Part shown: piece by piece, positions 6,046-45,840 of the stretch
Numbering within the stretch: the first letter of the stretch is position 1
How the letters are laid out: every line of letters starts with the position of its first letter
From: Candidatus Brocadiia bacterium
Lineage (GTDB): Bacteria; Planctomycetota; Brocadiia; CAIUPP01
Reading direction: 5' to 3'
NCBI GenBank assembly: GCA_052139675.1
Contig: JBKQWE010000033.1
Coordinates: 12,122 to 76,121 of the forward strand
DNA length: 64,000 nt
Position numbers and translations under genes: made by a program
Notes under the pieces: model-generated
Told to the model about the DNA's origin: nothing
The model's input: the letters and a program-made list of their open reading frames with translations, nothing else
Databases searched by the model: none

Positions 6046-7074
6046 GTGAAAGAGCGGCTGCTCGCGTTCGCGGCGATTGCGTTGGTGTTCGCCGCCACCG
6101 GCTGCGAGAGATCCCCGGCGAAACCGAAGATCGGCGTCGCGATCTATAAATTCGACGACACCTTCATGTCCTACGTGCGCAACAAGATCGAGTCGGCCGC
6201 GAATGGCCGCATCGAGCTCTCCGTGCAGGACAGCCAGTACGATCAGCCGAAGCAGAACGACCAGATTGACCAGTTCCTGGCCGAGGGCTGCACCGCTCTC
6301 GCCGTCAACCTGGTGGACCCTTCCGCCGTATCGGTCATCATCGAGAAGGCGAGAGCGAAAAACGTCCCTCTCGTGCTTTTCAACCGCGAGCCGGCCGCCG
6401 CGGATATGGCGAAGTGGGACAAGGTGTACTACGTCGGCGCGAAGGCCCAGCAGTCCGGAACTTTTCAAGGCGAGATCATCGCGGATTATTGGAAAACGCA
6501 TCCCGCCGCCGACCTCAACAAGGACGGAAAGCTCCAGTACGTGATGCTGATCGGCGACCCGAGCAACACCGACGCGAAGTTCCGCACCGAGTACTCGATC
6601 AAGGCGGTCGAAGCCGCCGGAATCCCCGTTGAAAAGCTCGCCGAAGACACCGCGATGTGGGACCGCGTCCGAGCCCAGGAAAAGATGGCCGCCTTCCTCA
6701 CCGCCTACAGAGGCCGGATCGAAGTCGTGTTCGCCAATAACGACGACATGGCCCTGGGTGCGATCGAAGCCCTCAAGGCCGCCGGCTATTTCAAGGGCGA
6801 TAAATTCATGCCGGTCGTCGGCGTGGACGCCACGCCGCCGGCCCTCGACGCCATCGAGCAGGGCACTCTTCTCGGGACCGTCCTGAACGACGCCGAACGG
6901 CAGGGGCTCGCCACGTATGAACTGGCCTATGCCCTGGCCACGGGCGCGAAAGAAGTCAAGACCAGTGTGGCGCCGCTCGCGGACCAGGACGGCAAAGCCT
7001 CGGCCGCCGGCCGGTACATCTGGGTGCCGTACGTGAAGGTCACCCGGGACAACTTCAAGCAATTCAAGAAATGA
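6046..7074 (+). CDS. mglB: galactose/glucose ABC transporter substrate-binding lipoprotein MglB
   Basis: GTG start with AGGAGG 7 nt upstream. Lipobox AATGC. Periplasmic-binding-protein type I fold sequence (KIGVAIYKFDDTFMSYVRN ... NDDMALGAIEALKAAG). Followed directly by mglA and mglC. Confidence 0.8.
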   Translation: MKERLLAFAAIALVFAATGCERSPAKPKIGVAIYKFDDTFMSYVRNKIESAANGRIELSVQDSQYDQPKQNDQIDQFLAEGCTALAVNLVDPSAVSVIIEKARAKNVPLVLFNREPAAADMAKWDKVYYVGAKAQQSGTFQGEIIADYWKTHPAADLNKDGKLQYVMLIGDPSNTDAKFRTEYSIKAVEAAGIPVEKLAEDTAMWDRVRAQEKMAAFLTAYRGRIEVVFANNDDMALGAIEALKAAGYFKGDKFMPVVGVDATPPALDAIEQGTLLGTVLNDAERQGLATYELAYALATGAKEVKTSVAPLADQDGKASAAGRYIWVPYVKVTRDNFKQFKK

Positions 7075-11281: not shown

Positions 11282-11389
11282 CTTATCACTATGGGCGGCA
11301 GTGACGCCCATCCGCGCCGCGAGTGCTTGCAGGAGGGCTCATGCATCCGGGAAATTCTGATCCATGCGCACTTCAGAGTGGACCCAGTG

Positions 11390-11527
11390 CTTCCTGGCGG
11401 AAATAGACCTCCTATTTCCGCCAGGAAGCATGACCGCGATAAGCCGCGTCGTTATATTGGGTTATGCGGTCCGTTGGACCGTGTTTAGTTGCGCAAATTG
11501 GTACGCCAATTTGCGCAACTAAACACT
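11390..11527. repeat. two-hairpin intergenic repeat element, copy A
   Basis: Hairpin 1 cttcctggcggaaatag-acctc-ctatttccgccaggaag (17-bp stem). Conserved 50-nt spacer. Hairpin 2 gtttagttgcgcaaattgg-tacg-ccaatttgcgcaactaaac (19-bp stem). Near-identical copy at 19881..20020. Confidence 0.75.
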
Positions 11528-13175
11528 AGCGCCGCGGGCGAGCCTCGAGCACGATGGGGTTGCCATCGGGAAGCCCCGCGATCTTCACCAGTTCGTAGGA
11601 CTTGAGAAGCGCCTTTATCTGCACCGGCTGAAAGCTCGAAGTCGCGCGGTCCAGCAGCACAAACCGGTACGGCCAGTACGTGTCCTGCTTGGAAGAGGAG
11701 GCAGGAATCGTCTCGCCCGCCTCCAGGACGCGTCCGGGCAGCCGGGAATAAAACGTCCCGTAGCAGGAGTTGGTCAGCAGCGCGTCGCCGGGCTGCGCAT
11801 GGTCGCCGATCCAGCGCGCGGCCTGGAGCACCGACCGTGAATGATCGTGGAGCGGGCGCAGGCTGCGCGGCAGCAGCCCCAGCACGGACCCGGCGACCAG
11901 CAGGCCGGCCAGGAGGCCGGGGCTGAATCGCGCCGCCACCGCCGGCCACGGAGCCAGCAGCCCGGACAACTTCCCGCCCAGCCAGATGGTCCCGCTGCCC
12001 GCCCAGGCGAGGCTCACGCACAGCAGCGGCATGGTATGCCGCCCTGCGATGTAGCCTGCCACCAGGTACAGCAGGAGCAGGAGCAGGATGTTGAAGCCGG
12101 CCAGGACCGCCAAGTAGAGCTTCGGACGCGGCTGGGCCTTCGGCGCGCCGGGGAAGACAACTCCCATCGCAACCAGCCATGTAATAAAGTAACGCAGACT
12201 TACCGTCCACTGCATGGACAGCACGGCCACGGCATACTCCAGCGCGACGAGTCGGCCGCTCCGGGGAGCCGGTTGAGCAGCGACAGGGACCGGTGCCGGC
12301 TCTGAGACGGCCGGGACTGCAACTGGTGGCGAGGCGGCCGGACTGGGCTGCGCCGCGGGCGGCGCTGCCGGCGGAGCGCCTGCGAGACTCTGGCTCCCTT
12401 GCTCGGCCGATTCGCTGCGCACGAGCGCGCTGAAGTCCTTCTTGCCCGTCAGTTTCCCCTTGAGGCACGGATACGGCGCCGCGACGATTCCCGCGGCGAC
12501 CAGCAACCCGGCAAGCCAGGCGAGCGCCCGCAGCGGCTTTTCGCGTCCGAAGACGGCCAGGAGCGCAATGACGCCGGCGCCGACGACGACCGGGGCCAGC
12601 CCTTCGGGCCGTATCCAGTAGGCCAGGGCGCTCGACGCGCCGGCGAGCGGAAAAAACCAGAACCTGCGCCGGACCAGCCCTTCGGTGATCAACCAGGCCG
12701 ACAGGAGGTAGAAGAACAGGTGCGGCGCGTCGCTCATGGTATCCGCGGCGCTTTCGCAGAAACCCGGCAGGATCGCGAAGAAGACCGCCGCAATGCCGGC
12801 CACGCGGTTGTCGAACGCGCGGCGGACAAAGCACCAGAACACGAGCACGTTGAGGAAGCCGAAGAGCATCACCGGCGCCCGCGCGGCCCAGATCCATGCG
12901 CGGAAATCATCCGCCGGCCCGAACAGGCCGATGACGCGCCGGGTAGCCAGGATCAACGCCGGGTAGCCGGGATGCTGGACCGATTTGCGGATCGCCTCGA
13001 TGGGCGATCCGCCGAGTTGCTGCGCTATTTCGATGAACGTCACGCCGTCCTTCGCGATGACCGGCGACCGCGCGGCAAGGGCGATCTCCACTCCCGCCGT
13101 CAGCGCCAGGGCGACGAACAGCCCGATCAGCGTCCCGCGCGGCGTGGCGACCGGACCGGTCTCTTCAGTGTGCAT
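11526..13175 (-). CDS. polytopic membrane glycosyltransferase, GT39/GT83-like (ArnT/PMT fold) with Pro/Ala-rich linker
   Basis: Multiple TM helices at the N-terminus, DG..F.E motif region (AKDGVTFIEIAQ) reminiscent of ArnT/PMT family, internal PAAPPAAQPSPAASPP linker. Assignment by architecture only. Confidence 0.45.
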   Translation of the reverse strand: MHTEETGPVATPRGTLIGLFVALALTAGVEIALAARSPVIAKDGVTFIEIAQQLGGSPIEAIRKSVQHPGYPALILATRRVIGLFGPADDFRAWIWAARAPVMLFGFLNVLVFWCFVRRAFDNRVAGIAAVFFAILPGFCESAADTMSDAPHLFFYLLSAWLITEGLVRRRFWFFPLAGASSALAYWIRPEGLAPVVVGAGVIALLAVFGREKPLRALAWLAGLLVAAGIVAAPYPCLKGKLTGKKDFSALVRSESAEQGSQSLAGAPPAAPPAAQPSPAASPPVAVPAVSEPAPVPVAAQPAPRSGRLVALEYAVAVLSMQWTVSLRYFITWLVAMGVVFPGAPKAQPRPKLYLAVLAGFNILLLLLLYLVAGYIAGRHTMPLLCVSLAWAGSGTIWLGGKLSGLLAPWPAVAARFSPGLLAGLLVAGSVLGLLPRSLRPLHDHSRSVLQAARWIGDHAQPGDALLTNSCYGTFYSRLPGRVLEAGETIPASSSKQDTYWPYRFVLLDRATSSFQPVQIKALLKSYELVKIAGLPDGNPIVLEARPRR

Positions 13176-13242
13176 TCTGGTTGATGAATCCCCTAAAGGT
13201 GTCAGGGAAAGGACGACCGCCTCGAAAGCCGGCGACCGCGCT

Positions 13243-14376
13243 TCAGCATCGCTCTGCTCCCTTCCGCGGCGACAGAAGATTCTCGCGGAGCGCGGCCTTG
13301 CACCGTTCGCGGCTGAAACGCAGCGCGTTCGCGCGCAGCGTTTCGGCGCGGAAGGCCGCCTCGGACCGCTCGAACCGGCGCACGGCCTCGACGAGCGCCG
13401 CGGCGGTCGGCTCGCGGAAAAGGATGCCCGTCGCGCCCGCCTGCGGCGCGGCCTGCGCCAGGTCCACGACGGTCTCGAGCGCGCCGCCGCGGCCGTAGGC
13501 GATGACCGGCCGCCCGCACGCCTGGACTTCCAGCGGCACGAGGCCGAAGTCCTCCTCGCCCGGGAAGATCAGCGCCCTGCACGCCGAGTAATGCCGCCGC
13601 AGCGCGTCGTCCGGCTGGCGGCCGAGGAATTTCACGTTCGGCGGCGCGGTCCTGCGCGCCCAGCCGAGGTCCTGGCCCTCGCCGATCACCACCAGCTCGC
13701 GGCCCAGCGCGCGGAACGCCTCCAGCGCCAGGTCCATGCGCTTGTACGGCGCCAGCGCGCCCGCCCACAAGTAGAAGCCGCCGGGCGCGGCCTCCACCGG
13801 GCGGAAGTAATCGGTGTCCACCGGAGGATAAACCACCGCCGACTCCCGGTCAAGGCAGCGCCGGACGCGCTCGCGCACGTTCTCGCAATCGGAGACATAC
13901 TCGGTCACCCGCCGCGCGGCCTGCCGGTTCCATTCCCGCAGCCGCGGCTGCAACCGTCGCAGGAGGAAGTACTGGAGGCCGGCGCGCCACCCGCGCGGAC
14001 GGTAGGCCTCGAGCTGGTCCCAGGCGTAGCGCATCGGCGTCAGGCAATAGCAGACGAACCGCGTGCCTTCCGCGACCCGCACCCCGTGCGCCACGCAATG
14101 GCTGACGGCGACGACCAGGTCGTAACCTTCCAGCCGCATCCGCCCCGCCGCCCACGGCATGAGCGGCAGCAGGTTCCGGTAATAGCCGCCGACGCCGGGC
14201 AACCGGTCCAGGCAGGAGGTGAAGATGCGCCGGTTCTCGATCACGGGCGTGACGCTGCCGGGGACGTGAACCATCGTGTAGAGATCGGCCTCGGGGAAAA
14301 GCTCGCAGAGGACCTCGAGGACCTTTTCTCCACCCCGCATGCCCGTCAGCCAGTCATGGACGAGAGCGCAACGCAC
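13243..14376 (-). CDS. glycosyltransferase family 4 (GT-B fold) protein
   Basis: N-terminus MRCALVHDWLTGMRGGEKVLEVL typical of GT4 enzymes. C-terminal EEDFGLVPLE motif (E-X7-E). 67 bp upstream of the GT39-like gene on the same strand. Confidence 0.7.
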   Translation of the reverse strand: MRCALVHDWLTGMRGGEKVLEVLCELFPEADLYTMVHVPGSVTPVIENRRIFTSCLDRLPGVGGYYRNLLPLMPWAAGRMRLEGYDLVVAVSHCVAHGVRVAEGTRFVCYCLTPMRYAWDQLEAYRPRGWRAGLQYFLLRRLQPRLREWNRQAARRVTEYVSDCENVRERVRRCLDRESAVVYPPVDTDYFRPVEAAPGGFYLWAGALAPYKRMDLALEAFRALGRELVVIGEGQDLGWARRTAPPNVKFLGRQPDDALRRHYSACRALIFPGEEDFGLVPLEVQACGRPVIAYGRGGALETVVDLAQAAPQAGATGILFREPTAAALVEAVRRFERSEAAFRAETLRANALRFSRERCKAALRENLLSPRKGAERC

Positions 14377-14617
14377 GGGATTTTTCTGCCGGCGGCTGAT
14401 CGGGCGCCGGCGAGAAGCTCCTCACAAACCCGCGATGGCTGCAAATATTGAATTATACCCTTGCCGCGAATATCCCGCAAGACGCCGGCGCCCGCGCGGC
14501 GACCTGTCGCAAATTGTTGCAACTTGCGGCTCGGACGTTGCTTGCGAGCTGCTGAAATGCCTGCTACTATTGGGCGATTGCGGAGGGCGCGCGGTCTTGA
14601 AAACCGGAGATGCTGCG

Positions 14618-17035
14618 ATGCCGACACAAGCGACTGACGTCATTATCAGGCGGTGCGCGGCGCTGCGAGCGAGCCTGGTTCCGCTGATGCTCGCGCTGCT
14701 GCTCGGCTCGCAGGCCCGGGCCCAGGTTGTCCGGGCGGTCGTCCGAGCTGACGAGAACCAGAAGAACCTGCTGAAGGAAAACGCCTGGCGGCCGTTCCAA
14801 AGCGAGTTCCCTTTCAGGCGCGATGGAGAAGCCTTCGTCTGCGACAACGGGGCGGACCGCAACGCCAGGGGCGGCGTCAGCCAGGCGGTGGTCCTTAACC
14901 AGTCGGCGCCCCGGCCGATCCTCGCTTCGGTCTGGAGCCAGGCCGCCGGCGTCGGCGGGCAGCGCGATGCGGATTACTCGCTCTACCTCGATCTCGTCTA
15001 CACGGACGGCGAGCCGCTCTGGGGCCAGGTCGCGCCGTTCAAGGTCGGCACTCATGACTGGCAGCGCGTGGAAGTGCGGGTCTTCCCCGCCAAGCCGGTC
15101 AAAGAGGTCTACTTCCACATGCTGCTCCGCTCGCATGCCGGGAAGGCGTCGTTCAAGCAGCCGCAGTTGTGCCAGATCGCAACCGCCCGCGACGCCGTGA
15201 TCTTTGACGGCGTGCCCGTCAAGCCGACTGCGGCCGGAACGGAGGGCTTCTGGGTCCGCGACGCGGCGGCCGATTCCGACTTCCATTCGCTGGAGAACGG
15301 AGAGGCGCTGGGCCTGAAGCTGGAGTTCAAGAAGGCCCTGCAGGGACAAGCCGCCTTCTTCACCGGCAGCCTGACTGATACCACCGGCAAGGACCGTGCC
15401 GTGACTCTGATCTATGCGGCGCCCGTTTCCGGCGACGGCTGGCGCTGGTGGGCGAGCCCTCGCCAGGACATGCCCGCCTCGCCCTATGAGAATGTATGCG
15501 CGTCGCGGTTCGGAGACAGCGGGACGGGCCGGCTGTCCTTGTACCCGTTTGCCGCCGTCACCCAAGGGGACCAGGGCCGGGCCATCGCCCTGGACATGGG
15601 CAGGCCCGCGTTCTTCCGCGTCGGGTTCGCCGCGGGATTGAGCGAACTCTACATCGCCTATGACCTGGGCCTGGCGAAGGAGAAGCCCGCGGCGGAGTTC
15701 TCCTTCTGCACCTTCCCCTTCGCCGGCGCGGCGGGGTTCCGCGGCGCGGCCGCCCGGTTCTACAAGCTCTTCCCGGAATATTTCCGCTGCCGCACGCCGC
15801 GGCAGGGAATCTGGATGCCGTTCCAGAAAATCAGCCAGGTCGCCGGCTGGCAGGATTTCGGCTTCCGGTTCAAGGAGGGCAATGACGAGACCGAATGGGA
15901 CAACGCGCACGACATCATCACATTCCGCTATACCGAGCCGATGACCTGGTGGATGCCCATGCCGAAGGAGCTGCCGCGCATGCCGGAGGCCGCGCTGGCC
16001 GAGGCCAAAAGGCGAGCGGCCAAGGGCGACCGGGATGCCCAGGCCCTGCTGACCAGCGGCCATTACGACGAATCGGGGCAGTTCGTGGCCCAGATCCTTC
16101 ACGAGCCGTGGTGCGATGGCGCGGTCTGGAGCATGAACTCTTCACCCGGCATTCCGGGCGATGTGACGGACTTCAAGAACAAGTGGAACGCGGACCTGCG
16201 GGAAAAGCTGTACGGCAAGGGCCGCAAGGGCGACCTCGGCGGAGAGTACGTTGATTCCAGCGAAGGCTACGTGACGGCCGAGCTGGATTTCCGCCGGGAG
16301 CACCTGGCCGCCGCGCAGGCGCCGCTGACCTTCTCGGCCGACGACTTCAAGCCTGCGGTCTTCCGCGGCCTGATCGCGTTCGAGTACGTCCGCGCCATCG
16401 CCGAAGACGTGCACGGCATGGGCAAACTCATGATGGCCAACGGCACTCCGGGCCGGCTGTGCTGGCTGGCGCCGTGGCTGGACGTCTTGGGGACCGAGAC
16501 CGACTGGAACCCCGGCGGAAAATGGCGGCCGATGTCCGACGAGGAACTGCTCTACCGGCGGGTCCTGTGCGGGCCGAAGCCGTACTGCTTCCTGATGAAC
16601 ACGGACTTCACGGCCCTCTCCCATGAACGGGTCGAGAAGTACATGAAGCGCTGCCTGGCCTGCGGCATGTTCCCCGGCTTCTTCAGCCAGAACGCCTCCG
16701 AGGGCCACTACTTCAGCCAACCCGCGCTCTACAACCGCGACCGCGACCTGTTCAAGAAGTACGTGCCGCTGTGCCGCACGGTGGCCGAGGCGGGCTGGCA
16801 GCCGATCACCCGCGCCCGATGCGAGGACCCGAAGGTGCGGGTGGAACGCTTTGGCGAGAAGTACCTGACGGTGTTCAACGACAGCGGCCGGGAAACGGAA
16901 GCGGTCATCGCGCTGAGCGGCCAGGCTTCCGGAACGGTCCGCGAGCTCGTCGGCGGCGCGGAACTGCCGGTCGCGGGCGGGAAGCTCACGCTATCGCTGA
17001 AGGCGGAGGACGTGGCCGTCATCGTCGAGGAGTGA
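14618..17035 (+). CDS. large secreted hypothetical protein (805 aa)
   Basis: Start chosen at MPTQATDVIIRRCAALRASLVPLMLALLLGSQARAQ (signal-like) because the track ORF start 14339 overlaps the convergent GT4 gene. Composition protein-like throughout. No family recognised. Confidence 0.5.
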   Translation: MPTQATDVIIRRCAALRASLVPLMLALLLGSQARAQVVRAVVRADENQKNLLKENAWRPFQSEFPFRRDGEAFVCDNGADRNARGGVSQAVVLNQSAPRPILASVWSQAAGVGGQRDADYSLYLDLVYTDGEPLWGQVAPFKVGTHDWQRVEVRVFPAKPVKEVYFHMLLRSHAGKASFKQPQLCQIATARDAVIFDGVPVKPTAAGTEGFWVRDAAADSDFHSLENGEALGLKLEFKKALQGQAAFFTGSLTDTTGKDRAVTLIYAAPVSGDGWRWWASPRQDMPASPYENVCASRFGDSGTGRLSLYPFAAVTQGDQGRAIALDMGRPAFFRVGFAAGLSELYIAYDLGLAKEKPAAEFSFCTFPFAGAAGFRGAAARFYKLFPEYFRCRTPRQGIWMPFQKISQVAGWQDFGFRFKEGNDETEWDNAHDIITFRYTEPMTWWMPMPKELPRMPEAALAEAKRRAAKGDRDAQALLTSGHYDESGQFVAQILHEPWCDGAVWSMNSSPGIPGDVTDFKNKWNADLREKLYGKGRKGDLGGEYVDSSEGYVTAELDFRREHLAAAQAPLTFSADDFKPAVFRGLIAFEYVRAIAEDVHGMGKLMMANGTPGRLCWLAPWLDVLGTETDWNPGGKWRPMSDEELLYRRVLCGPKPYCFLMNTDFTALSHERVEKYMKRCLACGMFPGFFSQNASEGHYFSQPALYNRDRDLFKKYVPLCRTVAEAGWQPITRARCEDPKVRVERFGEKYLTVFNDSGRETEAVIALSGQASGTVRELVGGAELPVAGGKLTLSLKAEDVAVIVEE

Positions 17036-17047
17036 CGGCGATTCCGG

Positions 17048-18091
17048 TCAGCTCCAGCCGTGTTCGTACCCGGTCTCGTACATCGCCACGACGTTCTCCG
17101 CCGGGCCGACGACCTGGATGTTGTGGCACGGGGCGATGATGTAGCCGCCGCCGGCGCCGAGGATTCGCAGGTTGTCCATGACCTCCTGCCGCACCTCCGC
17201 GACCGTGCCGAACGGAAGCGTCTGCTGGTTGTCCACCCCGCCGTGGAAGATCAGCTTGCCGCCGAAGTCGCGCTTCAGCCGCTCGCGCTCCATGCCCCTG
17301 CATCTCCACTGGATCGGATTGAGCACGTCAATCCCCGCCGCGATCATGTCCGGCAGGATGCGCCAGCAGGAGCCGTCGTTGTGGTGGAAGGCGTACGCGC
17401 CGGCGCTGTGCGTCAGGGCGATCATCCGTTTCATCCGCGGCAACAGGAACTCGTGAATGTGCTTGACGGAGAGCATCAGGTCGTTCTGCCCGCCCATGTC
17501 CTCGGCGATATACGAGATCGTGACTTTGCCCGGGATCGCCTCGTAGGTCCGGCGCGTCTGCTCATAGGCGAAGTCGAAAAGCTTGTCGAGGCAGTAGTGG
17601 ACGATTTCCGGGTTGAGCGCCAGGTCCATGAACGCCTGCTCCTGTCCGCGCAGCGACTTGTAGGTGAGGAACGGCTCGGACCCGCCGCCGCGGATCGGGC
17701 GGCGCTCCTGCCCTTCGACCTGCTTCGGAATGCCGGAGAAGTCGAACCAGTCTATGCCGGGCCAGCGGTAGTTCTTCTCGATCTCCGCGACGGAGTTGTA
17801 CCGGGCGAGCGGGGCGTCGGCGTTCTCGAGATACTCGCCGCCCTCGTGCCGGATCGTCTGCATGCGGATCCCGTAGAGGTTCGTCCCCGGCGGCAGCTTC
17901 GGCCCGACGTACTTCGGGCCGACGTCCAGCGGCGCGTCAATGTGCAATCGCGCGAACACCTCCTCGGTGGTGGCGAGGCCCAGGTGCTGCTTCAGCTTCG
18001 CGGTCGCTTCCGACGTCGCCCAGTAATCCATCGGCACGCGGTCCGGCTTCTCGCGCCGCAGAACGGCCAGCCAGCGCTCGCGAGGCGTCAT
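17048..18091 (-). CDS. uroporphyrinogen decarboxylase (URO-D) family protein, MtaA/CmuA-like
   Basis: N-terminus MTPRERWLAVLRREKPDRVPMDYW matches the canonical start of the URO-D/MtaA family. TIM-barrel family sequence throughout. Upstream in-frame ATGs at 18106/18112 are possible alternatives. Confidence 0.7.
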   Translation of the reverse strand: MTPRERWLAVLRREKPDRVPMDYWATSEATAKLKQHLGLATTEEVFARLHIDAPLDVGPKYVGPKLPPGTNLYGIRMQTIRHEGGEYLENADAPLARYNSVAEIEKNYRWPGIDWFDFSGIPKQVEGQERRPIRGGGSEPFLTYKSLRGQEQAFMDLALNPEIVHYCLDKLFDFAYEQTRRTYEAIPGKVTISYIAEDMGGQNDLMLSVKHIHEFLLPRMKRMIALTHSAGAYAFHHNDGSCWRILPDMIAAGIDVLNPIQWRCRGMERERLKRDFGGKLIFHGGVDNQQTLPFGTVAEVRQEVMDNLRILGAGGGYIIAPCHNIQVVGPAENVVAMYETGYEHGWS

Positions 18092-18313
18092 CGTTTCCTT
18101 GGGCATGCGCATCCTCCAGGTTGATCGTTGGGAACCTGCTTGCCAGGATTCTATCATCCCCGAATGAAATAGCAACCGAGGTTCCGCGCCGGCGGCCAAG
18201 GACTTGCTTGACGGAGGCAACCTCGATTGCTAAACATGCTGTTGGATGCGTGATGGTCCTGCGGCGCGCGGCCGCAGGGCGAATTCCGGCTCGCGCAGGA
18301 GGCTTCGAACGCC

Positions 18314-19846
18314 ATGGCCGTTCAGATGCGGCGGATCGGATTGGCTCGGACGGCGGTGCTGTTGCTCCTTCTGATCAGCGTCTCGGCGGCTGCCGATACG
18401 CTTACGCTCAAGCCTTCCGGCAAGCCGCGCCCTTTGCAAGGCCCCATTTTCGGGGCTTCGACGACGGCGTTTTACGAACGGCTCCTGGAGGACCCGGCCA
18501 AGGTCGCCGTGCTGAAAACGATGGAGATAGGCCTGCTGCGTTTCCCCGGCGGCTCAGACTCCAACTTCTACAACTGGCGCACGGGGCTGATCGAGATCCA
18601 GGAGAAGCCGGACAGTTCGGCCTACGTGCAGTTCTGGGTTAAAGCCGCGGCCAACATCGCGCGCGGCAAGCCGAAGGGGGTGAGCTTTGAGCAGTTCGAG
18701 CCCTTCGCGCGGGAGATCGGAGCGCAGGTCGTTTTCGTCCCGAACCTGGAATCCTCCAGCGTCGAGGACCAGGTGGCATGGTTCAAGCGCCTCGCCGGCG
18801 AGGGCATCGTGCCGCAGCGGATCGAATTGGGAAATGAGTTCTGGGTCGCGATGGGCAACGATCCGACGAGCCTGGCGCACTGGCCCGATGAGCCGACCAG
18901 CATGCAGATCATGAAACAATATCTGGATGCGATCAAGCCCAGCTTGCCGGCCAATGTCAAGGTGGCCGTGCAGGCGGCCGCCGGCGCCATTGACGTGCGA
19001 AGGGGCCGATTCGGACAACGGCTTCGGAAATGGGATGACGACCTGCGGCCGGAACCCTGGTTCGACGCCGTCACGCTGCATCTCTATCCGCGTCTGCGCG
19101 AGGTGATGGGCGATCCCGAGGCCGGGGCGACGCCGCCGACGGAGGAGAACGCGGCGCAGCGCCTCAACGCCATGATGGCCCGCGTGGACGAAGGAGTGGA
19201 CCGCATCCTCCAGGACTTCGAACGCCGTTTGCCCGGCAAGGAACTCTGGATTACGGAATGGAACACGCGCGGCGCCAATCCGGTGGCCGACCGCGGCGAC
19301 GCCGGAGAGCCGATGTCGCCCGCGATGGAAATGCTGACCACGACGCGCATGGCCCTGGTTCAGCTCCGCCATCCCTCGGTGACGGCCTCGCTCTTGTTCA
19401 TGTACAGCTTCAGGCCGAAAGATTCCCACGCGATGTTCGTGCCGGACGGCCAAAGAAGCTACGCCCCGGTTCCCACGGCTGCCGCGTTCCGCTGGTTGAG
19501 CGAGGCGGCCAATCGGAGCAGCTCTTTCCAGCGCCTGGTCCAGGCGGACGAACGCTCGGTCGCGGGCGGCGGAGCGAAGACTGAATATTTTATTCCGGTC
19601 GAGGCGGGACTGTTCGAGTCGCCCGCGCGCACGACGCTTCTGCTGGAGAACGCGTCCGCCGCCGATCTTTCCTTCGATCCTTCAACATTATTTCAGGACC
19701 GCAAGCCCGACCGAGTTGAAACCCTCGCCACGTCCGGCCTTCTCGATCTCGATAAAAAAGCCGCAAGGATAGAGGAGCAAAACGCCGCGGGGCCGATCGC
19801 CATAAGACCATTCTCATTGACCCGAATCGTCTGGGATAAAAATTAG
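18314..19846 (+). CDS. secreted glycoside hydrolase, clan GH-A (GH39/GH79/GH30-like)
   Basis: Signal peptide. Acid/base motif IELGNEFW and nucleophile motif LWITEWN spaced as in clan GH-A (beta/alpha)8 enzymes. Confidence 0.55.
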   Translation: MAVQMRRIGLARTAVLLLLLISVSAAADTLTLKPSGKPRPLQGPIFGASTTAFYERLLEDPAKVAVLKTMEIGLLRFPGGSDSNFYNWRTGLIEIQEKPDSSAYVQFWVKAAANIARGKPKGVSFEQFEPFAREIGAQVVFVPNLESSSVEDQVAWFKRLAGEGIVPQRIELGNEFWVAMGNDPTSLAHWPDEPTSMQIMKQYLDAIKPSLPANVKVAVQAAAGAIDVRRGRFGQRLRKWDDDLRPEPWFDAVTLHLYPRLREVMGDPEAGATPPTEENAAQRLNAMMARVDEGVDRILQDFERRLPGKELWITEWNTRGANPVADRGDAGEPMSPAMEMLTTTRMALVQLRHPSVTASLLFMYSFRPKDSHAMFVPDGQRSYAPVPTAAAFRWLSEAANRSSSFQRLVQADERSVAGGGAKTEYFIPVEAGLFESPARTTLLLENASAADLSFDPSTLFQDRKPDRVETLATSGLLDLDKKAARIEEQNAAGPIAIRPFSLTRIVWDKN

Positions 19847-19880
19847 CCTGGTCCAGCGTTCACAACTTGCACCCCAAGTG

Positions 19881-20020
19881 CTTACTTGCGGAAATAGGCG
19901 TCCTATTTCCGCAAGTAAGCATGACCGCGATAAGCCGCGTCGTTGTATTGGGTTATGCGTTCCGTTGGACCGTGTTTAGTTGCGTAAATTGGCGTACCAA
20001 TTTACGCAACTAAACACTAG
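19881..20020. repeat. two-hairpin intergenic repeat element, copy B
   Basis: cttacttgcggaaatag-gcgtc-ctatttccgcaagtaag and gtttagttgcgtaaattgg-cgta-ccaatttacgcaactaaac. Differs from copy A by paired compensatory substitutions in both stems. Confidence 0.75.
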
Positions 20021-20295: not shown

Positions 20296-21174
20296 ATGGG
20301 GAGGCTCAGCATGAATGTCCGTCGTTTTACGATAGCCGTATTTGCAGCCGGTCTTTTTCTCTTCGCGCGCGCCGGACTGGCCGTTGACTACACCGTAGAC
20401 GAAACGACCATCGCCGCCTTTGGAGACGTGGGGCAGAACCAGGTCGGGCCGAATGGCACGTCGGGGAATAACTTCTGCGCTCCGACGGCGACGATCAACT
20501 CGTTCACCTGGCTGACAAACGCCTATCCCGGGACGTATGGCGATCTGCTGATGGGCGGACAAGCTACCTGGGTGGCGGCCGGTCAACTGTTGGCGGGCGG
20601 CAACTTCATGCAGACTGATCCGAACACCGGGACCTCGGTGGCCAACTGGATCAACGGCAAGTACAACTATATCCAGACGTACGCGCCGGGCAGCACGATC
20701 TTCCAGGGAATGTCCTCGCTCGGCACCGGCGGCCAGCCTTGGGTGCAGGCCGCGAATCCGACCGCCAACTTCCTGCTGCAGATGTTGCAGTACGGAGAAG
20801 ACGTGGAGATCGGAATTGTCCCTGCGGCGGGCGGCACCGGGCACGTCTTGACTCTCTCGAGCATTGACTGGGATGACGCGAACAATAACAGCATCTTTGA
20901 CGCCGGTGACACGCTCAGCATTGACGGCCTCGACCCCGCGGGCTCCGACGGCCTCGGCACCTCGGCGTCAACATTTGATTTGGACCTGAGTCCTGCCACT
21001 GTGGCGGGCGGTCCCCTCACGGTTTCCGGCGGCGACGGCGGCGTCTACAACGGCTATGCGCTGAAAGTTGCCCTGGCCGAAAGCCCGGTCCCCGAGCCGG
21101 CGACCTTGAGCCTCTTCTTTGCGGGCTGCGGAGCGGCCGCGCTGTTGCGCCGACTTCGACGTCACGCCGCGTGA
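20296..21174 (+). CDS. PEP-CTERM sorting-domain secreted protein
   Basis: Signal peptide. C-terminus VPEPATLSLFFAGCGAAALLRRLRRHAA is a PEP-CTERM (PEP motif, TM helix, Arg cluster). Confidence 0.75.
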   Translation: MGRLSMNVRRFTIAVFAAGLFLFARAGLAVDYTVDETTIAAFGDVGQNQVGPNGTSGNNFCAPTATINSFTWLTNAYPGTYGDLLMGGQATWVAAGQLLAGGNFMQTDPNTGTSVANWINGKYNYIQTYAPGSTIFQGMSSLGTGGQPWVQAANPTANFLLQMLQYGEDVEIGIVPAAGGTGHVLTLSSIDWDDANNNSIFDAGDTLSIDGLDPAGSDGLGTSASTFDLDLSPATVAGGPLTVSGGDGGVYNGYALKVALAESPVPEPATLSLFFAGCGAAALLRRLRRHAA

Positions 21175-28240: not shown

Positions 28241-28370
28241 CGGGTCCGCCTCCTTCCGCCCCGGGCCGGTCTCCGGCCGTTCCAAAGCCGGCGCCCGCGG
28301 GCGCAAACCGCCGGTCATTCTACCATTTCGCTCCCGCTTTTCAATCCTCACCACAACGACCACCGCAGTT

Positions 28371-28518
28371 TCACCACGACGACACAACGAGCACGACGAA
28401 ACTGCTGTTACGGCAATCCGCCGTTTTTGATGTTCGTTGTTTGGCGTTCGTCGTGCTCGTCGTGTCGTCGTGGTGAAAATTCGTGCCGTCGTGGTAAAAA
28501 TTCGTGTTGTGGTGGAAG
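28371..28518. repeat. CACGACG-type long imperfect inverted repeat, copy 1
   Basis: tcaccacgacgacacaacgagcacgacgaa ... ttcgtcgtgctcgtcgtgtcgtcgtggtga (about 29-bp arms, one mismatch, 46-nt loop) followed by degenerate tandem copies (attcgtgccgtcgtgg, ttcgtgttgtggtgg). Loop homologous to copy at 43801..43912. Confidence 0.6.
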
Positions 28519-37723: not shown

Positions 37724-37984
37724 TCAGTCGTGGTCGGGGCGGTCGTCGCCGAACTGTTCTCTCAGCCGCTCGAAGCGGCTGGCGTAGATCATCTCGAACA
37801 GTTCGTCGCGCCCGGGGAAAAGCTCCTCGCACAGCTCGCGCAGCTTTTCCACCTGGATCACAATATCAATTTGCGGCAGGTCTGTCGAGAGGATGAGCAC
37901 GGCGATCCGGTCCGCCTCGCGCTGGAGGAGCGTCATGTTCCGGCGCGCGCCATGAAGCAGCTCATTCGGCAATTCGTGCTTCAT
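37724..37984 (-). CDS. small hypothetical protein (86 aa) translationally coupled to the mazF-like gene
   Basis: Its ATG overlaps the mazF-like stop (ATGA at 37981-37984). Balanced composition. 22 bp upstream of the YhaM-like gene. Confidence 0.4.
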   Translation of the reverse strand: MKHELPNELLHGARRNMTLLQREADRIAVLILSTDLPQIDIVIQVEKLRELCEELFPGRDELFEMIYASRFERLREQFGDDRPDHD

Positions 37985-38310
37985 TCGGCAAACATCTCCG
38001 CCAGGACCGCCAGAACCAGCTTCTGCGTGGCGGCGCCCATTCGGCCCAAGTGCTTCACGAAGCGCACTTTATCAATGGTCCGAACCTGATCGAGAACGAT
38101 CTGGCCGTCCTTGCCAGCGAAACTGCACGCGACGCGAGTGGGGTACTCGCGTCCTCGGGTCGTCATGGGCGCCACGATGACCGTGGCGATGTGGCGGTTC
38201 ATCTCGTCGGGCGAGATCACCAGGCACGGACGGGTCTTCCTGACCTCGCTGCCGACGGTCGGGTCGAGGTTCACCAGGAAAACGTCAAACCGGCGGGCTA
38301 CCACTGCCAT
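37981..38310 (-). CDS. mazF: type II toxin, MazF/PemK family endoribonuclease
   Basis: FDVFLVNLDPTVGSEVRKTRPCLVISPDEMN is a canonical PemK/MazF N-terminal motif. Confidence 0.8.
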   Translation of the reverse strand: MAVVARRFDVFLVNLDPTVGSEVRKTRPCLVISPDEMNRHIATVIVAPMTTRGREYPTRVACSFAGKDGQIVLDQVRTIDKVRFVKHLGRMGAATQKLVLAVLAEMFAE

Positions 38311-38756: not shown

Positions 38757-39137
38757 CTATTTCCGGGTACCGTCGCCGGCTTTGCCGGGGGTCTTTTTAA
38801 GATTGGCCACCAGATGCTTGCTGAGGTTCCTCAGCAGGCGTGCGCGGCGCTCGGCGGAGATCTGGCCGATCGAGCCCAAAATCCTCTGACGGGGCAGCAC
38901 AGCCAGGAATCCCAGACGGATCAGGGAATCTGCAACGAGACCTGATGCGGCAAAATCGGAATCCCGCTTGGAGATGACCTCGTCGAATTCGGGCACGGCC
39001 TGATGGAGTTGGGTGGTGATGCCACAGGCGAGGAAATCCCCATACGGCGGAAGTTCGCGAAGCAAAAGCGCCGGTCGGTTCTTCATCATCCCGTCAGCCT
39101 GCATCAGCGGCGTCAGGATGATGTCGCCTTCGTTCAT
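38757..39137 (-). CDS. second PemK/MazF-like toxin
   Basis: MNEGDIILTPLMQADGMMKNRPALLLRELP resembles the PemK-family N-terminus (GDIvl....g.e.k.RPalvl). Confidence 0.55.
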   Translation of the reverse strand: MNEGDIILTPLMQADGMMKNRPALLLRELPPYGDFLACGITTQLHQAVPEFDEVISKRDSDFAASGLVADSLIRLGFLAVLPRQRILGSIGQISAERRARLLRNLSKHLVANLKKTPGKAGDGTRK

Positions 39138-43731: not shown

Positions 43732-43800
43732 GGCGCCCGTCGCCTTTCTACATTAATTATTGGTCCGTCCGGACCGCGTGTCAAGTCCGGTCCCGCCGCG

Positions 43801-43912
43801 ACGACACGAACGTTCACCACGACGAGCACTACGGGACTGTTATTACAAGAATCCGTTGTCTCCGATGATTGTTTTGCCGCGTTCGTCGTGCTCGTCGGGC
43901 CGTCGTGGTGAA
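43801..43912. repeat. CACGACG-type long imperfect inverted repeat, copy 2
   Basis: cgttcaccacgacgagcac ... cgttcgtcgtgctcgtcgggccgtcgtggtgaa. Arms and loop (ctgttattacaagaatccgttgtctccgatgattgttttgccgcg) homologous to 28371..28476. Confidence 0.55.
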
Positions 43913-44019
43913 AGCGGTCGTCCGTTATATCGCAGGTTTGACTTCGCGAATGGCGCGGCCTAAAATGGCCCGCAACGTCGTCTGCGGCAATCCGATGCGA
44001 CCACCGCGTCGTCTCGCGT

Positions 44020-45831
44020 GTGAGAAATCCATTGAGCAAGAAGCAGGCCGCAAAACCGCGCAGCCGGGCGATTCTTTGGCCCGAGGAGCTTGCCCGCCCT
44101 CCTTCTGGCGGGGTCGCCCGCGCTCAAAGCGGAGCGAGGGAAAAATTGCGCGCCGCCGCGAAACCCGGACCGAAGCGCAAGCCCGCGCCGCCGGGCCGCG
44201 CGAAACCGCCGGCAAAAGCGCCCGTTCCGCCGCCGGCTGCGCCTGCGAAGAAACCCGCTGAAGCGCCCGTCGCCCACCGCCGCACGGCCGAGCAGCTCGC
44301 CAAGCAGCAGCGCGAGATTTCGGTCAGCGAATTCTTCACGAAGAACCGCCACCTGCTCGGGTTCGACAACCCGCGCAAGGCGCTCCTGACGGCGGTGAAG
44401 GAGGCGGTGGACAACTCGCTCGACGCCTGCGAAGAGGCCGGCATTCTGCCCGAAGTGAGCATCGCCGTCGCCCAGGCCGACGGCGTCGAGGACCGGTTCC
44501 GCGTGACGATCGAGGACAACGGCCCGGGCATCATGCCTGCGCAGGTGCCGAGGATTTTCGCCAAGCTGCTCTACGGCTCGAAGTTCCACCGGATGCGCAT
44601 GGCGCGCGGGCAGCAGGGCATCGGCATCAGCGCGGCGGGGATGTACGGCCAGTTGACGACCGGGAAGCCGACGCGGATCATCTCGCGCGCGGCGTCGCGC
44701 CGCAAGGCGTACCGCTGCGAGCTGCTGCTCGATACGAAGAAGAACGAGCCGACCGTGGTGAAAGAGGAAGAGGTGGACTGGGACCGCCCGCACGGCACGC
44801 GCGTGGAGATTGAGCTGGAGGCGCGTTACACCCGCGGGCGCCAGTCGGTCGAGGAGTACCTGCAGCAGGTGGCCATCGCCAACCCGCACGCGACGATCGT
44901 GTTCGAGCCGCCGGAGGGCGAGCCGCTGCGCCTCGCGCGCTCCTCCAACGTGCTCCCGCCGGAACCGCGCGAGATCAAGCCGCACCCGTACGGCATCGAG
45001 CTGGGGATGCTGATCGGCATGCTCCAGTCCACACGCTCGCCGCGCGCATCATCGTTCCTCCACGCCGATTTCTCGCGCGTGAGCAGCCCGGTGGCGGCGG
45101 ACATCTGCCGGCGCGCGAACGTGAACCCGAACGCGCGGCCCGCGCGCGTCGGCCGCGACGAGGCCGAGCGGCTCTACACGGCGCTGCAGGCGACGAAGCT
45201 GATGAAGCCGCCGATGGACTGCGTGGTGCCGATCGGCGAGGAGCTGCTGCTCAAGGGCCTCAAGCGCGGCGTCGAGGCGGACTTCTATCACACCGTCACG
45301 CGGCCGCCGGCGGTCTATCGCGGCAACCCGTTCCAGGTCGAGGCCGGGCTGGCGTACGGCGGGCAGTTGCCGGCCGAGGAGCCGTGCCGGCTCATCCGGT
45401 TCGCCAACCGCGTGCCGCTGCTCTACCAGCAGTCCGCGTGCGCCGTCACCCGCGCCGCCGCGACCACCGCTTGGCGCAACTACGGCATCCAGCAATCGCA
45501 GGGGCAGCTTCCCGTCGGCCCGCTCGCCATCGTGGTCCACATCGCCAGCGTCTGGGTGCCGTTCACCTCCGAGAGCAAGGAAGCCGTCGCGCACTACCCG
45601 GAGATCCTCAAGGAGATCAAGCTGGCGCTGCAGGAATGCGGGCGGAAGCTCGGGCTGTTCGTGCGCCACCGCCGGCGCGAGGCCGACGCGGAACGCAAGC
45701 GCCAGTACATCACCAAGTACATCCCGCACATCGGCATCGCGCTGCAGGAGATTTTAGGGCTGACCGAGAAGGAAGAATCGCAGGTGGTGAGCAAGCTCGA
45801 GGACATGCTGGAGAAAAGCCGGAAACTGTAA
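44020..45831 (+). CDS. DNA topoisomerase VI subunit B homologue (Bergerat/GHKL ATPase plus transducer) with Lys/Pro/Ala-rich N-terminal tail
   Basis: GTG start. Collinear similarity to archaeal Top6B recalled from memory: ISVSEFFTKNRHLLGFDNPRKALLTAVKEAVDNSLDA (Bergerat N-box), DNGPGI (G1), KPHPYGI, GNPFQVEAGLAYGG (transducer), KYIPHIGIALQEI. First 90 aa are AKPPAKAPVPPPAAPAKKPAEAP H1-like repeats. Confidence 0.85.
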   Translation: MRNPLSKKQAAKPRSRAILWPEELARPPSGGVARAQSGAREKLRAAAKPGPKRKPAPPGRAKPPAKAPVPPPAAPAKKPAEAPVAHRRTAEQLAKQQREISVSEFFTKNRHLLGFDNPRKALLTAVKEAVDNSLDACEEAGILPEVSIAVAQADGVEDRFRVTIEDNGPGIMPAQVPRIFAKLLYGSKFHRMRMARGQQGIGISAAGMYGQLTTGKPTRIISRAASRRKAYRCELLLDTKKNEPTVVKEEEVDWDRPHGTRVEIELEARYTRGRQSVEEYLQQVAIANPHATIVFEPPEGEPLRLARSSNVLPPEPREIKPHPYGIELGMLIGMLQSTRSPRASSFLHADFSRVSSPVAADICRRANVNPNARPARVGRDEAERLYTALQATKLMKPPMDCVVPIGEELLLKGLKRGVEADFYHTVTRPPAVYRGNPFQVEAGLAYGGQLPAEEPCRLIRFANRVPLLYQQSACAVTRAAATTAWRNYGIQQSQGQLPVGPLAIVVHIASVWVPFTSESKEAVAHYPEILKEIKLALQECGRKLGLFVRHRRREADAERKRQYITKYIPHIGIALQEILGLTEKEESQVVSKLEDMLEKSRKL

Positions 45832-45840
45832 CGGAAAGTC

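Follow-up and report, generated by a model that had tools for sequence, protein, structure and literature searches.

Two 142-bp double-hairpin sequences in a 64,000-nucleotide stretch of DNA (the window) from the uncultured planctomycete labelled 'Candidatus Brocadiia bacterium' at NCBI are probably two insertions of a non-autonomous transposable element (a MITE) whose 140 bp are bordered by flanking dinucleotides. A miniature mobile element had been one of several candidates in a sequence-only reading of the window. It is the candidate borne out by dispersed copies with unrelated flanks, two filled/empty sites, terminal inverted repeats (TIRs), and TA- or CTAG-like flanks. The element is a new MITE family, an ordinary kind of genomic parasite, and not a new structured RNA gene.

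We found that the two copies are 90% identical, with 14 differing positions and no indel in a pairwise alignment. They lie where the sequence-only reading had placed them, and we refined their limits to 11386-11527 (copy A, plus strand) and 19877-20018 (copy B, plus strand). These limits were set where similarity among eight aligned copies ends, and the unit is 142 nt, AGTGCTT...AAACACT. CM scores were 174.8 bits for copy A and 175.7 bits for copy B. In copy A, terminal palindrome 1 (11388-11430; RNA and DNA folds) is a perfect 19-bp stem with the loop ACCTC, and terminal palindrome 2 (11481-11526; folds and comparison of a 22-nt motif) is a perfect 21-bp stem with the loop TACG. The ~50-nt linker between them (11431-11480) varies more than any other part of the family. 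In copy A it holds the ATG of a 30-codon ORF and a weak promoter-like match, neither of them conserved. In copy B, terminal palindrome 1 (19879-19921; RNA and DNA folds) has a 19-bp stem, one extra G-C pair and the loop CGT, and terminal palindrome 2 (19972-20017) has a 21-bp stem with the loop CGTA at 19993-19996. In element numbering, hairpin 1 is 3-21/27-45 and hairpin 2 is 96-116/121-141. Stems of 17 and 19 bp had been called perfect in both copies. Perfect pairing holds for A and B, at 19 and 21 bp, but not for further copies, which have uncompensated mismatches. The loop differences between A and B are as that reading described them.

The folding energy of the element is -78 to -90 kcal/mol (z = -10 to -12 relative to shuffles, on either strand). 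As single-stranded DNA, the hairpins have energies of -52 to -59 kcal/mol (z = -12 to -14). No chance matches to sub-patterns of the element are expected in the window. The G+C content is 47-51%, compared to 65% for the genome.

Each element contains four copies of a 22-nt motif, arranged -> <- linker -> <-. Hairpins 1 and 2 are homologous to each other (18/22 identical). Because the outer two motif copies are inverted, they form TIRs, AGTGCTTACTTGCGGAAATAGG and AGTGTTTAGTTGCGTAAATTGG, that agree at 18 of 22 positions. The left TIR of copy A is the outer arm of palindrome 1, based on comparison of the motif copies, and the right TIR is the outer arm of palindrome 2. The motif was not found outside the element in the window and the related loci then compared (~135 kb). 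The outermost bases and flanks are also mutually inverted (CTAGTG...CACTAG), and the inner feet of the hairpins differ (CATG, CCG). The homology of the hairpins, an inversion of loop 2 in copy B, and the junction of copy A on the stop codon of a PMT_2-like gene had escaped the sequence-only reading.

Two related perfect dyads (19-21 bp) per element, with conserved half-site sequence, might also be expected of operators for a dimeric DNA-binding regulator, with sites ~94.5 bp apart, centre to centre. We consider this very improbable. The copies are insertion-polymorphic and follow stop codons in either orientation, beside genes of unrelated function, and there is no linked regulator gene. In addition, if a protein tolerates either base at a position, the other half-site has no reason to change in a complementary way.

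The 30-codon ORF and its five amino-acid differences between A and B are as had been noted, and the pattern is indeed not that of coding sequence. There is virtually no chance that this 30-residue peptide (MTAISRVV...NLRN) is a product of the element. Four copies (A, B, C, and D) keep the frame open. However, the five differences between A and B are replacement changes, and the frame is interrupted by a premature stop (copy E), a frameshift (F), or indels (H). The foot of hairpin 1 encloses the ATG, and copy B has no spaced ribosome-binding site. Six-frame profile searches of 5.8 billion proteins gave only read-through artefacts. With the frame broken in E, F, and H, the ORF as a gene is refuted for practical purposes.

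We found further copies of the element in relatives, where the sequence-only reading had proposed to look. Eight more junctions or copies were recovered from related metagenome contigs, all with unrelated flanks. Full copies are present at unrelated loci (A and B in the window, L005, two in L009, L008, and L011); L002 has a partial copy and L017 a chimeric copy. The short-read contigs L002, L010, and L011 break off inside the element, as expected of a repeat. The family sample is 8-10 copies, some from assemblies with evident indel errors, and any copy number per genome is only an extrapolation from 2 copies per 64 kb. Neither a transposase nor a full-length insertion sequence sharing these ends was found in the window and related loci (~330 kb, partly redundant).

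Two orthologous empty sites indicate that the element is an insertion. The element of L009 (copy F) is missing at the orthologous gspE-gspF junctions of L014, L015, and L012/L013. The empty site reads ...GGA TAG CTG... and the filled site ...GCA TA[GTGTTT...AAGCGC TA]G CTC AAGAGGA..GTG(gspF). The second site is at the end of a gene for a 185-aa protein. In ten contigs this gene ends CCG CCG TAG TGC and is element-free. In L011 (copy H), the element is at the end of the gene, which has lost its stop codon and runs on as an ORF of 218 aa.

The sequence-only reading had placed both window copies just 3' of glycoside hydrolase genes. The protein upstream of copy A matches Pfam Melibiase_2, consistent with GH27, but the 510-aa protein that had been labelled clan GH-A has no Pfam match. 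The association appears to be incidental, as other copies follow gspE, a UDP-glucose dehydrogenase gene, and the gene for the 185-aa protein, which has no family match. Where an upstream gene could be recognised, most copies (A, B, C, E, H, and the site-A copy of L017, L017-A) are in the same direction as that gene, 5-105 nt past its stop codon. Copy D is upstream of a gene, and copy F runs antisense to its operon (gspE/gspF). Only copy F is clearly intra-operon, and it is the one with a degraded hairpin.

These positions could indicate that the element works in place as a structured RNA, as a two-hairpin 3'-UTR stabiliser, terminator, or insulator, with RNA structure selected at each locus. 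The hairpins are extremely stable as RNA on both strands, the sole clearly intra-operon copy is degraded, and of the six private stem changes, three (in copies D and H) give U-G wobbles on the plus strand. In other bacteria, hairpins of MITEs and REPs are known to influence the stability of mRNA (PMC2229807). Nonetheless, we think such a role quite unlikely. Rfam gave no match, whether at the gathering threshold or at E <= 10, and neither hairpin is followed on either strand by a T-run, the signature of a terminator. The orientation of copy F and the location of copy D do not fit, and presence or absence of the element varies among close relatives. The stems are conserved in sequence in addition to pairing (25/40 pairs are invariant), compensated variants belong to subfamilies and not to single loci, and there are private pair-breaking changes in C, E, and F. 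Uncompensated mismatches of this kind were what the sequence-only reading had said would disfavour a structured RNA.

The copies also recombine, as indicated by a chimeric copy in L017. The strain of L017 matches the window at 99.58% identity, starting precisely at element position 1 of site A, and to the left of this point its flank is unrelated to that of the window. Its site-A copy is B-type to position 84 and then A-type. At site B, identical copies are present in three other assemblies (L016, L017, and partly L010). As substrates for homologous recombination, copies of the element also contribute to chromosomal rearrangement.

The average flanks of the element are CTA GTG...CAC TAG. The left flanks (-3 to -1) are CCA, CTA, CAA, CCA, CTA, TTG, CTA, CGA, and CTC, and the right flanks (+1 to +3) are TAG, TAG, TTG, TAG, TGG, and TAT. 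Copies D, F, and L017-A are flanked by TA/TA and copy E by TG/TG. That is, the target-site duplication that the sequence-only reading had suggested checking for is a perfect TA in three of seven two-sided copies (4/7 counting TG/TG). The left T is absent from window copies A and B, from copy C, and from the single left junction of G. Copy E has an 8-bp near-repeat of its flanks. If TA is duplicated, then the core of copy A (GTG...CAC) is 11387-11526, flanked by CA (11385-11386) and TA (11527-11528), and the core of copy B is 19878-20017, flanked by AA (19876-19877) and TA (20018-20019). ISY100, of the IS630 family, inserts at TA and duplicates it; an occasional product has TA at one end and just A at the other (PMC2170065).

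The flanks fit insertion into the TA of CTAG, often in a TAG stop codon. We found that CTAG is depleted 17-fold in the window (12 seen, 208 expected). One of the 12 sites is within a CDS and four are on stop codons. This depletion, with a single site inside a gene, accounts for the position of copies just 3' of genes. We propose that a transposase supplied in trans recognises the ends of the element and inserts it at TA, preferentially within C-TA-G, and that TA would be duplicated as in IS630/Tc1-mariner elements. IS630 itself prefers CTAG. Since CTAG is nearly absent from coding sequence in this G+C-rich genome, the targets left to it would be short intergenic spacers and TAG stop codons. 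With G as its first base, the element rebuilds the stop codon when it inserts into the TA of a TAG stop. At its right junction, copy A runs into the TAG stop (11526-11528, minus strand) of a convergent PMT_2-like gene (11526-13175, minus strand), and this stop consists of the last base of the copy A core and the flanking TA. Copy F has the same geometry on the gspE stop codon.

The paired changes that had been reported in the arms of both hairpins are real. The differences between A and B at 8/40, 11/37, and 109/128 (position 128 is alignment column 130) are exactly complementary. When the copies were aligned, four pairs had changed on both sides and 96-97% of cells were paired. Shuffles matched the covariation score in 0/500 trials, and slid controls gave 0-1. 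Two of the four double changes are transversions (A-T to C-G at 8/40, and T-A to G-C at 11/37). The stems are ~7-fold better conserved than the linker, with ~1.3% pair-breaking changes (copy F left out) compared to 9.7% divergence from consensus. In copy H, 14/50 linker positions are changed and hairpin 2 is identical to the consensus.

Single copies have private, uncompensated stem mismatches, and in copy F 6-7 pairs are gone from hairpin 2. The hairpin-1 variant predicted to be ancestral (C.TT) was found in copy H and a half-compensated intermediate in copy F. All other copies have TACG in loop 2, and copy B has precisely its reverse complement. This flip is present in three independent assemblies, including L016 and L017, and copy B differs from its nearest relative, copy D, at only two other sites. 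The private mismatches and the exactly inverted loop argue against an RNA gene. The covariation points to template switching during replication, to a constraint that keeps the palindromic ends competent for transposition, or to both.

Paired substitutions would then mark subfamilies derived from different source copies, with each copy decaying after insertion through private, uncompensated changes. The arms could stay matched if only copies whose ends still form a palindrome or hairpin are propagated, or if template switching during replication copies one arm onto the other; both may apply. Template switching (quasipalindrome correction) by itself, with no selection on structure, is an alternative for the covariation only, and not for the identity of the element. 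We give it a substantial probability, somewhat short of an even chance. Template switching is documented to make perfect stems, compensatory changes, and loop inversions (PMC8794818, PMC7202029). It would explain the flipped loop, the transversions, and the divergence of hairpins 1 and 2 at 4/22 positions with the arms of each still identical. However, one loop inversion is one event, and mismatches left uncorrected in C, D, E, F, and H, most of all in hairpin 2 of F, indicate that correction is inefficient. Furthermore, arm-to-arm conversion alone does not explain why stem sequence is more conserved than the linker.

Pairing would be selected directly if the same dispersed element were moved as single-stranded DNA by a hairpin-recognising HUH tyrosine transposase (RAYT/TIRYT or IS200/IS605 type) that reads hairpin shape. 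The element would then be a fixed doublet of two REP-like self-complementary units. We regard this as unlikely, but it has several attractions. There are two homologous perfect hairpins, one at each end, that are very stable as single-stranded DNA and far better conserved than the linker. Pairing was kept through transversions (8/40, 11/37), which cannot go via a wobble intermediate. The filled and empty sites of F and H are equally compatible with a 142-nt insert and no duplication. Self-complementary TIR repeats close together and associated with RAYT-like genes have been described, including in the planctomycete R. baltica (PMC3733652). Against such a mechanism, neither a GTAG nor a CGTC tag is present at the hairpin foot, the units are AT-rich and, at 45-47 bp, longer than REPs (20-40 bp and G+C-rich), and the left flank is not the conserved tetra- or pentanucleotide that IS200/IS605 needs. 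The inverted symmetry CTAGTG...CACTAG with differing inner feet is typical of double-strand TIR elements, and no Y1 transposase gene was found at any related locus examined.

We compared the putative MITE to known systems. There was no sequence similarity to the element in phage and plasmid collections, Rfam, or IMG/VR viral contigs (three short patterns), or in GTDB species representatives (one 20-nt linker pattern). It resembles REP/REPIN sequences and RAYT/TIRYT TIR repeats (PMC3733652) in its dispersed palindromic units, which in those systems are sometimes self-complementary and close together. The hairpin-dependent mobilisation proposed for them (PMC3733652) would explain selection on pairing. 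Unlike REP/REPIN, the element has longer, AT-rich units without a GTAG/CGTC tag, in a fixed doublet with a conserved linker; its flanks suggest TA duplication, and we saw no RAYT-like gene nearby.

The element is similar to the IS630/Tc1-mariner group (ISY100, PMC2170065), from which RUP is thought to derive, in that the C-TA...TA-G flank consensus matches the TA target of that family and the TIRs are ~22-24 bp. Copies A and B resemble the imperfect ISY100 products. In contrast to that group, the cognate transposase or full-length IS was not found, and only 3-4 of 7 copies have a perfect duplication. The local perfect palindrome at each end is a feature that the IS630 analogy does not account for. 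To our knowledge, DDE-type MITEs do not normally need one, and we know of no description of inner inverted TIR copies in IS630/Tc1-mariner elements.

CIR elements of Caulobacter and Brucella are ~110-bp intergenic repeats with TA termini (Chen and Shapiro 2003, as cited in PMC2229807 and PMC10969869). According to these secondary accounts, their 5' and 3' parts are each a long stem-loop joined by a linker, the same two-arm architecture. CIR is reported there to be without TIRs and to have a GANTC methylation motif in the loop; our element has clear TIRs, no GANTC anywhere, and a host in another phylum.

Bacterial MITEs with TA termini include Correia/NEMIS (Neisseria), RUP (S. pneumoniae), and ERIC (reviewed in PMC2229807). 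Like these, the element is non-coding, in the range of ~100-200 bp, AT-richer than its host, and mostly intergenic, with TIRs, TA termini, and a probable target duplication. Its transcripts would also fold into long stems, and it is occasionally fused to the ends of ORFs (here P0001-P0003). Correia/NEMIS, RUP, and ERIC form a long stem between their two ends. In contrast, each end of this element has its own perfect palindrome, giving two independent hairpins.

We found that the window holds two copies, and only two, of a 142-nt element made of two hairpins joined by a linker: copy A (11386-11527) and copy B (19877-20018). The sequence-only reading had proposed such a two-copy element, and its description of the copies was borne out. 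They differ at 14 positions with no indel. Both hairpins are perfect in A and B, with stems of 19 bp (element positions 3-21 paired with 27-45) and 21 bp (96-116 paired with 121-141); wherever one arm of a stem differs between the two copies, the other arm has the exact complementary change, and the loops vary as well. The chance expectation for sub-patterns of the element in the window was zero. The copies fold as RNA at -78 to -90 kcal/mol (z = -10 to -12, on either strand) and as DNA at -52 to -59 kcal/mol. The G+C content of the element is 47-51%, compared to 65% for the genome.

Three features had been missed. The loop of hairpin 2 is exactly inverted between the copies, reading TACG in A and, as its reverse complement, CGTA in B. 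Hairpins 1 and 2 are related to each other. At its right end, copy A shares bases with the TAG stop codon of a convergent PMT_2-like gene (11526-13175, minus strand). Each element contains a 22-nt motif four times, in the order -> <- linker -> <-. The hairpin 1 version of the motif is AGTGCTTACTTGCGGAAATAGG and the hairpin 2 version is AGTGTTTAGTTGCGTAAATTGG; the two agree at 18 of 22 positions. Given this order, the outer two motif copies are terminal inverted repeats (TIRs) of the kind found in MITEs: the terminal 22 nt of one end, read in inverted orientation, agree with those of the other at 18/22 positions. No solitary copy of the motif was found in the window and related loci (~135 kb searched).

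A 30-codon open reading frame had been reported with five replacements between A and B, and these are present as claimed. It is the sole ORF of the element and is broken in three further copies (E, F and H), and we rejected a peptide gene on this ground. The linker of copy A (window 11430-11458) also has a weak sigma-70-like match (ATGACC-17 nt-TATATT). The match is not conserved: copy C has TATAAT as its -10, copies B and D have TGTATT, and F has TATACC.

Further copies (C-H) were found on related metagenome contigs. A 20-nt linker pattern led to two contigs of one JGI metagenome, L005 with a full copy and L002 with a partial copy cut off by the end of the contig; the other four of the six metagenome matches were due to chance. 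We also translated the element in six frames and used a profile search for predicted proteins that run into it. Only three proteins were recovered even at E <= 10, all of them read-through fusions, indicating that the family is rare in public data. The three contigs that encode them hold four more copies: one in L008 (copy E), two in L009 (including copy F) and one in L011 (copy H). Contigs L002, L010 and L011 end within the element, as expected of a repeat.

Other searches gave no further copies. A covariance model built on eight copies (R1) found no extra or solo-hairpin copies in 214 kb; a 19-bit match in L008 was rejected as unrelated coding DNA. One 20-nt linker pattern had a single match among GTDB species representatives, a chance match in a Rhizobiaceae MAG. 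Three short element patterns matched nothing in viral contigs, and BLAST found nothing in plasmid and phage records. Rfam gave no match at gathering thresholds across the whole window and, at E <= 10 around copy A, chance-level matches only (E >= 1, with bit scores far below gathering). Exact-protein look-up of the neighboring GH27 and PEP-CTERM proteins returned no record.

Among the main caveats are the small number of copies (8-10) and the origin of some of them in assemblies with indel errors. In ENA assemblies ERZ25039512 and ERZ25039471, genes are split by frameshifts (L008 10001-10873; L009 8750-10531 and 10575-10800): gspE is in three pieces, the N-terminus of gspF is shifted, and UDP-glucose dehydrogenase is shifted at AAGAAAG. 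These splits are probably assembly errors, and single-base indels in the element copies of L008 and L009 should therefore be treated with caution.

The flanks of all copies are unrelated, and similarity ends sharply at AGTG...CACT. There are at least nine distinct junctions in the window and related contigs, a dispersal like that of MITEs. Both window copies had been described as lying just 3' of secreted glycoside hydrolase genes. Pfam confirmed the GH27 neighbor, and the 510-aa neighbor labeled clan GH-A matched no Pfam family. This 510-aa protein is an exact match to MGO8703226.1, which NCBI assigns to 'Candidatus Brocadiia bacterium' (Planctomycetota). The association is incidental, as other copies follow unrelated genes.

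We found both filled and empty sites at two loci, as described for MITEs. Copy F sits in the gspE-gspF junction of L009. In its true frame, gspE there ends ...ITTPGEVLRATHAGDLEA-TAG; the element begins directly after the TA of this stop codon and supplies its G. Past the other end of the element come TA-G, the AAGAGGA ribosome-binding site and gspF, which starts with GTG. The corresponding junctions in L014, L015 and L012/L013 (GspF 92-96% identical) do not have the element, and that of L015 reads GGA TAG CTG. In L012 (~1889-1965) and L013 (~6975-7051) the junction contains a different palindromic insert of ~72 bp, CTGTCAGCTATCAGCTTTCAGC...GCTGATAGCTGATAGCTGAAAGC, with TAAGAG on both sides. 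Because this insert differs from copy F, the gspE-gspF spacer was hit independently by two unrelated hairpin elements. The second locus is the 3' end of a 185-aa gene. In ten contigs (L018-L027) this gene ends CCG CCG TAG TGC and is free of the element. In L011, copy H begins at the end of the gene, the stop codon is lost, and the reading frame runs 33 codons into the element (218 aa).

Copy E starts 5 nt past the true TAG of a UDP-glucose dehydrogenase gene. The predicted protein that seems to run into this copy (P0001) is not a genuine fusion and stems from an assembly frameshift.

The flanking bases are consistent with a preferred target. Left flanks (positions -3 to -1) read CCA, CTA, CAA, CCA, CTA, TTG, CTA, CGA and CTC (consensus CTA|GTG...), and right flanks (+1 to +3) read TAG, TAG, TTG, TAG, TGG and TAT (consensus ...CAC|TAG). 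We looked for target-site duplications and found TA/TA in copies D, F and L017-A (the copy at site A of contig L017), TG/TG in E, CA/TA in A, AA/TA in B and CA/TT in C. The left T is absent from three copies, and window copies A and B have just A on the left. The empty site of copy F has TAG where the filled site has TA...TA-G. By analogy with IS630/Tc1-mariner elements, these flanks would fit insertion at the TA inside CTAG with duplication of the TA. For ISY100, insertions that leave TA at one end and a lone A at the other have been documented (PMC2170065). Because the termini are palindromic (CTAGTG...CACTAG), a 4-bp duplication of CTAG or a duplication-free insertion would look the same as a TA duplication. 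Copy E (L008 10764-10930) is also flanked by near-identical octamers, TAGCCTTG on the left and TGGCCTTG on the right; this 8-bp near-duplication was seen at no other copy and, with termini of this palindromic form, is likewise indistinguishable from a TA duplication.

CTAG is very rare in this DNA. There are 12 occurrences in the 64-kb window compared to 208 expected from base composition, a 17-fold depletion. Two of these 12 are the right junctions of copies A and B, four are on stop codons and only one is in a coding region. A preference for C-TA-G, combined with the rarity of CTAG, would leave almost no targets other than TAG stop codons and spacers. When the element lands in a TAG, the stop codon is regenerated, since the element begins with G. 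Across the window TA is 2-fold depleted, and GATC and TCGA are ~1.9-fold enriched. The left CTAG junction reads CCAG, CAAG or CGAG in several copies, and this may reflect the same pressure against CTAG.

The covariation of the stems is solid. Across eight copies, 96.9% of cells are paired, and both sides have changed in four pairs (8/40, 10/38, 11/37 and 109/130), two of them by transversion. The covariation score was reached in none of 500 shuffles, and slid controls gave 0-1 such pairs. The three variants of hairpin 1 are each one compensated pair away from an inferred ancestor (C.TT). This ancestor is present in copy H, a half-compensated intermediate is present in copy F, and the compensated variants define two subfamilies (B/D/E/G and C/F).

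Several observations speak against selection acting on an RNA at each locus. The sequence-only reading had held that uncompensated stem mismatches in additional copies would disfavor a structured RNA. The stems are perfect in A and B, and pair-breaking changes were found in five of the additional copies, each private to a single copy (one in C, one in D, two in E, two in H and about eight in F). Of the 40 pairs, 25 never vary, indicating that sequence is conserved and not pairing alone. Divergence from the consensus is 9.7% in the linker compared to ~1.3% pair-breaking change in the stems (without copy F); in copy H, 14 of 50 linker positions have changed and hairpin 2 matches the consensus throughout. 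The copies lie in either orientation, some upstream of genes. Such a pattern is expected if propagation depends on the terminal palindromes and copies decay once inserted. A structured RNA is thus disfavored, and a mobile element is supported by the dispersal, the TIRs and the filled and empty sites. We also rejected a Rho-independent terminator: neither hairpin was flagged on either strand, and no T-run follows.

Template switching during replication might also keep the arms alike, beside or instead of a need for intact palindromes in propagation. Such switching has been documented to create and maintain stems, give compensatory changes and invert loops (PMC8794818). The exact inversion of loop 2 in copy B shows that DNA-level events between arms also occur. 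So does the identity of the arms within each hairpin, given that hairpin 1 has diverged from hairpin 2 at 4 of 22 positions. The loop flip is not an assembly artefact, since contigs L016 and L017 (99.57-99.58% identical to the window) have copy B unchanged, including the inverted loop. The invariant pairs and private mismatches are consistent with propagation followed by decay, and on 8-10 copies the two causes are inseparable.

Copies of the element have also recombined with each other. At site A, the match between L017 and the window begins precisely with element position 1; to the left of it, L017 has a different gene. Up to position 84 the L017 copy is B-type, and from there on it is A-type, with an identical PMT_2 flank, and its own junctions are a perfect CTA|...|TAG. 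Given this chimera and the different left flank, either the window or the L017 arrangement of site A is a recombinant of two copies, with the crossover within the element.

The window contains other repeats. A second family of intergenic hairpins of ~120 bp is present at 28364-28483 and 43796-43913 (77% identical to each other; 37-nt arms, 92% complementary). One copy is upstream of a fumarase-like gene and the other is before a topoisomerase VI B-like gene (44020-45831). Directly past the stop of the latter gene is an imperfect AT-rich inverted repeat with 35-nt arms (45836-45948). A perfect 26-nt inverted repeat, GTCATTCCCGCGAAAGCGGGAATCCA, with a 19-nt spacer (53514-53584) lies in the 3' part of a URO-D-like ORF, just downstream of a lexA-like gene (53665-54300, minus strand). 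Three short sequences (47906-47995, 58308-58384 and 56503-56579) are shared with unrelated positions in related contigs (respectively L009 4894-4983, 90%; L008 9346-9422, 87%; and L008 16789-16864, 81%). Sequence similarity of this kind suggests that there are several more small dispersed repeat families in the lineage. The window also encodes two MazF/PemK-family toxins, close together (37981-38310 and 38757-39137, both minus strand), and two PEP-CTERM-anchored proteins (20296-21174, plus strand; 54476-55186, minus strand).

We found no transposase family in the related loci examined or in the window ORFs scanned; 38 ORFs of the window and two from the loci were compared with Pfam. One proposal, which we consider improbable, is that the co-varying terminal palindromes are themselves the recognition signal of a previously undescribed mobilization in Planctomycetota, and that the element is "self-insulating" and hence tolerated at gene ends. 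A transposase would then recognize the hairpin or cruciform that each terminal repeat forms with the inverted copy inside it. This transposase might be HUH/TIRYT-like, or a DDE enzyme that acts as a dimer and has two inverted binding sites at each end of the element. The insulation would come from the restored TAG stop codon and from the strong hairpins that bracket the element. A hairpin-reading HUH enzyme of the TIRYT type (PMC3733652) is a possible mobilizer.

The element belongs to a previously uncatalogued MITE family in an uncultured planctomycete lineage of peat and wetland. Textbook-looking compensatory base-pair substitution can arise from a mobile element with palindromic ends and not from a functional RNA, a caution for covariation-based RNA discovery in metagenomes. 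The family appears to target very rare CTAG/TAG sites at gene ends, and its insertion can extend or rebuild stop codons. Its copies are a substrate for recombination, with the chromosome rearranged between strains 99.6% identical, and the element explains breaks in short-read assemblies at its sites. We consider three of its features mildly unusual: palindromic ends made of the TIR motif, apparent targeting of stop codons in a genome starved of CTAG, and recombination between copies.

The element resembles several known systems in part. Like the CIR repeats of Caulobacter, it has two independent stem-loops joined by a linker. In contrast to CIR, which has a GANTC motif in the loop and no TIR, the element has TIRs and no GANTC in any copy, and we rejected membership in CIR for lack of this motif. 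REP/RAYT systems also consist of dispersed palindromic units. However, REP and REPIN units have a GTAG/CGTC tag at the foot of a short G+C-rich palindrome, and the units of the element are too long and AT-rich (stems of 19-21 bp). The feet of its hairpins, (C)TAG-TGCTT and CCG-TGTTT, have neither tag, CGTC occurs in loop 1 only, and no RAYT gene was found in the related loci examined. Elements of the IS200/IS605 type have hairpins near both ends, as does this one. In the related PATE, the left target is a conserved tetra- or pentanucleotide, there is no duplication, and the hairpins are subterminal and imperfect. We rejected ends of this type, as the left flank is not constant at -2 (nor at -1 in copies E and H) and the hairpins are perfect and terminal, starting 2 nt from the ends. 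An attC-like or single long imperfect hairpin was also rejected, as the element folds as two separate perfect hairpins. With copies of 138-144 bp (below 300 bp and non-coding), TIRs, dispersal and filled and empty sites, the element falls within the working definition of a MITE (PMC2229807).
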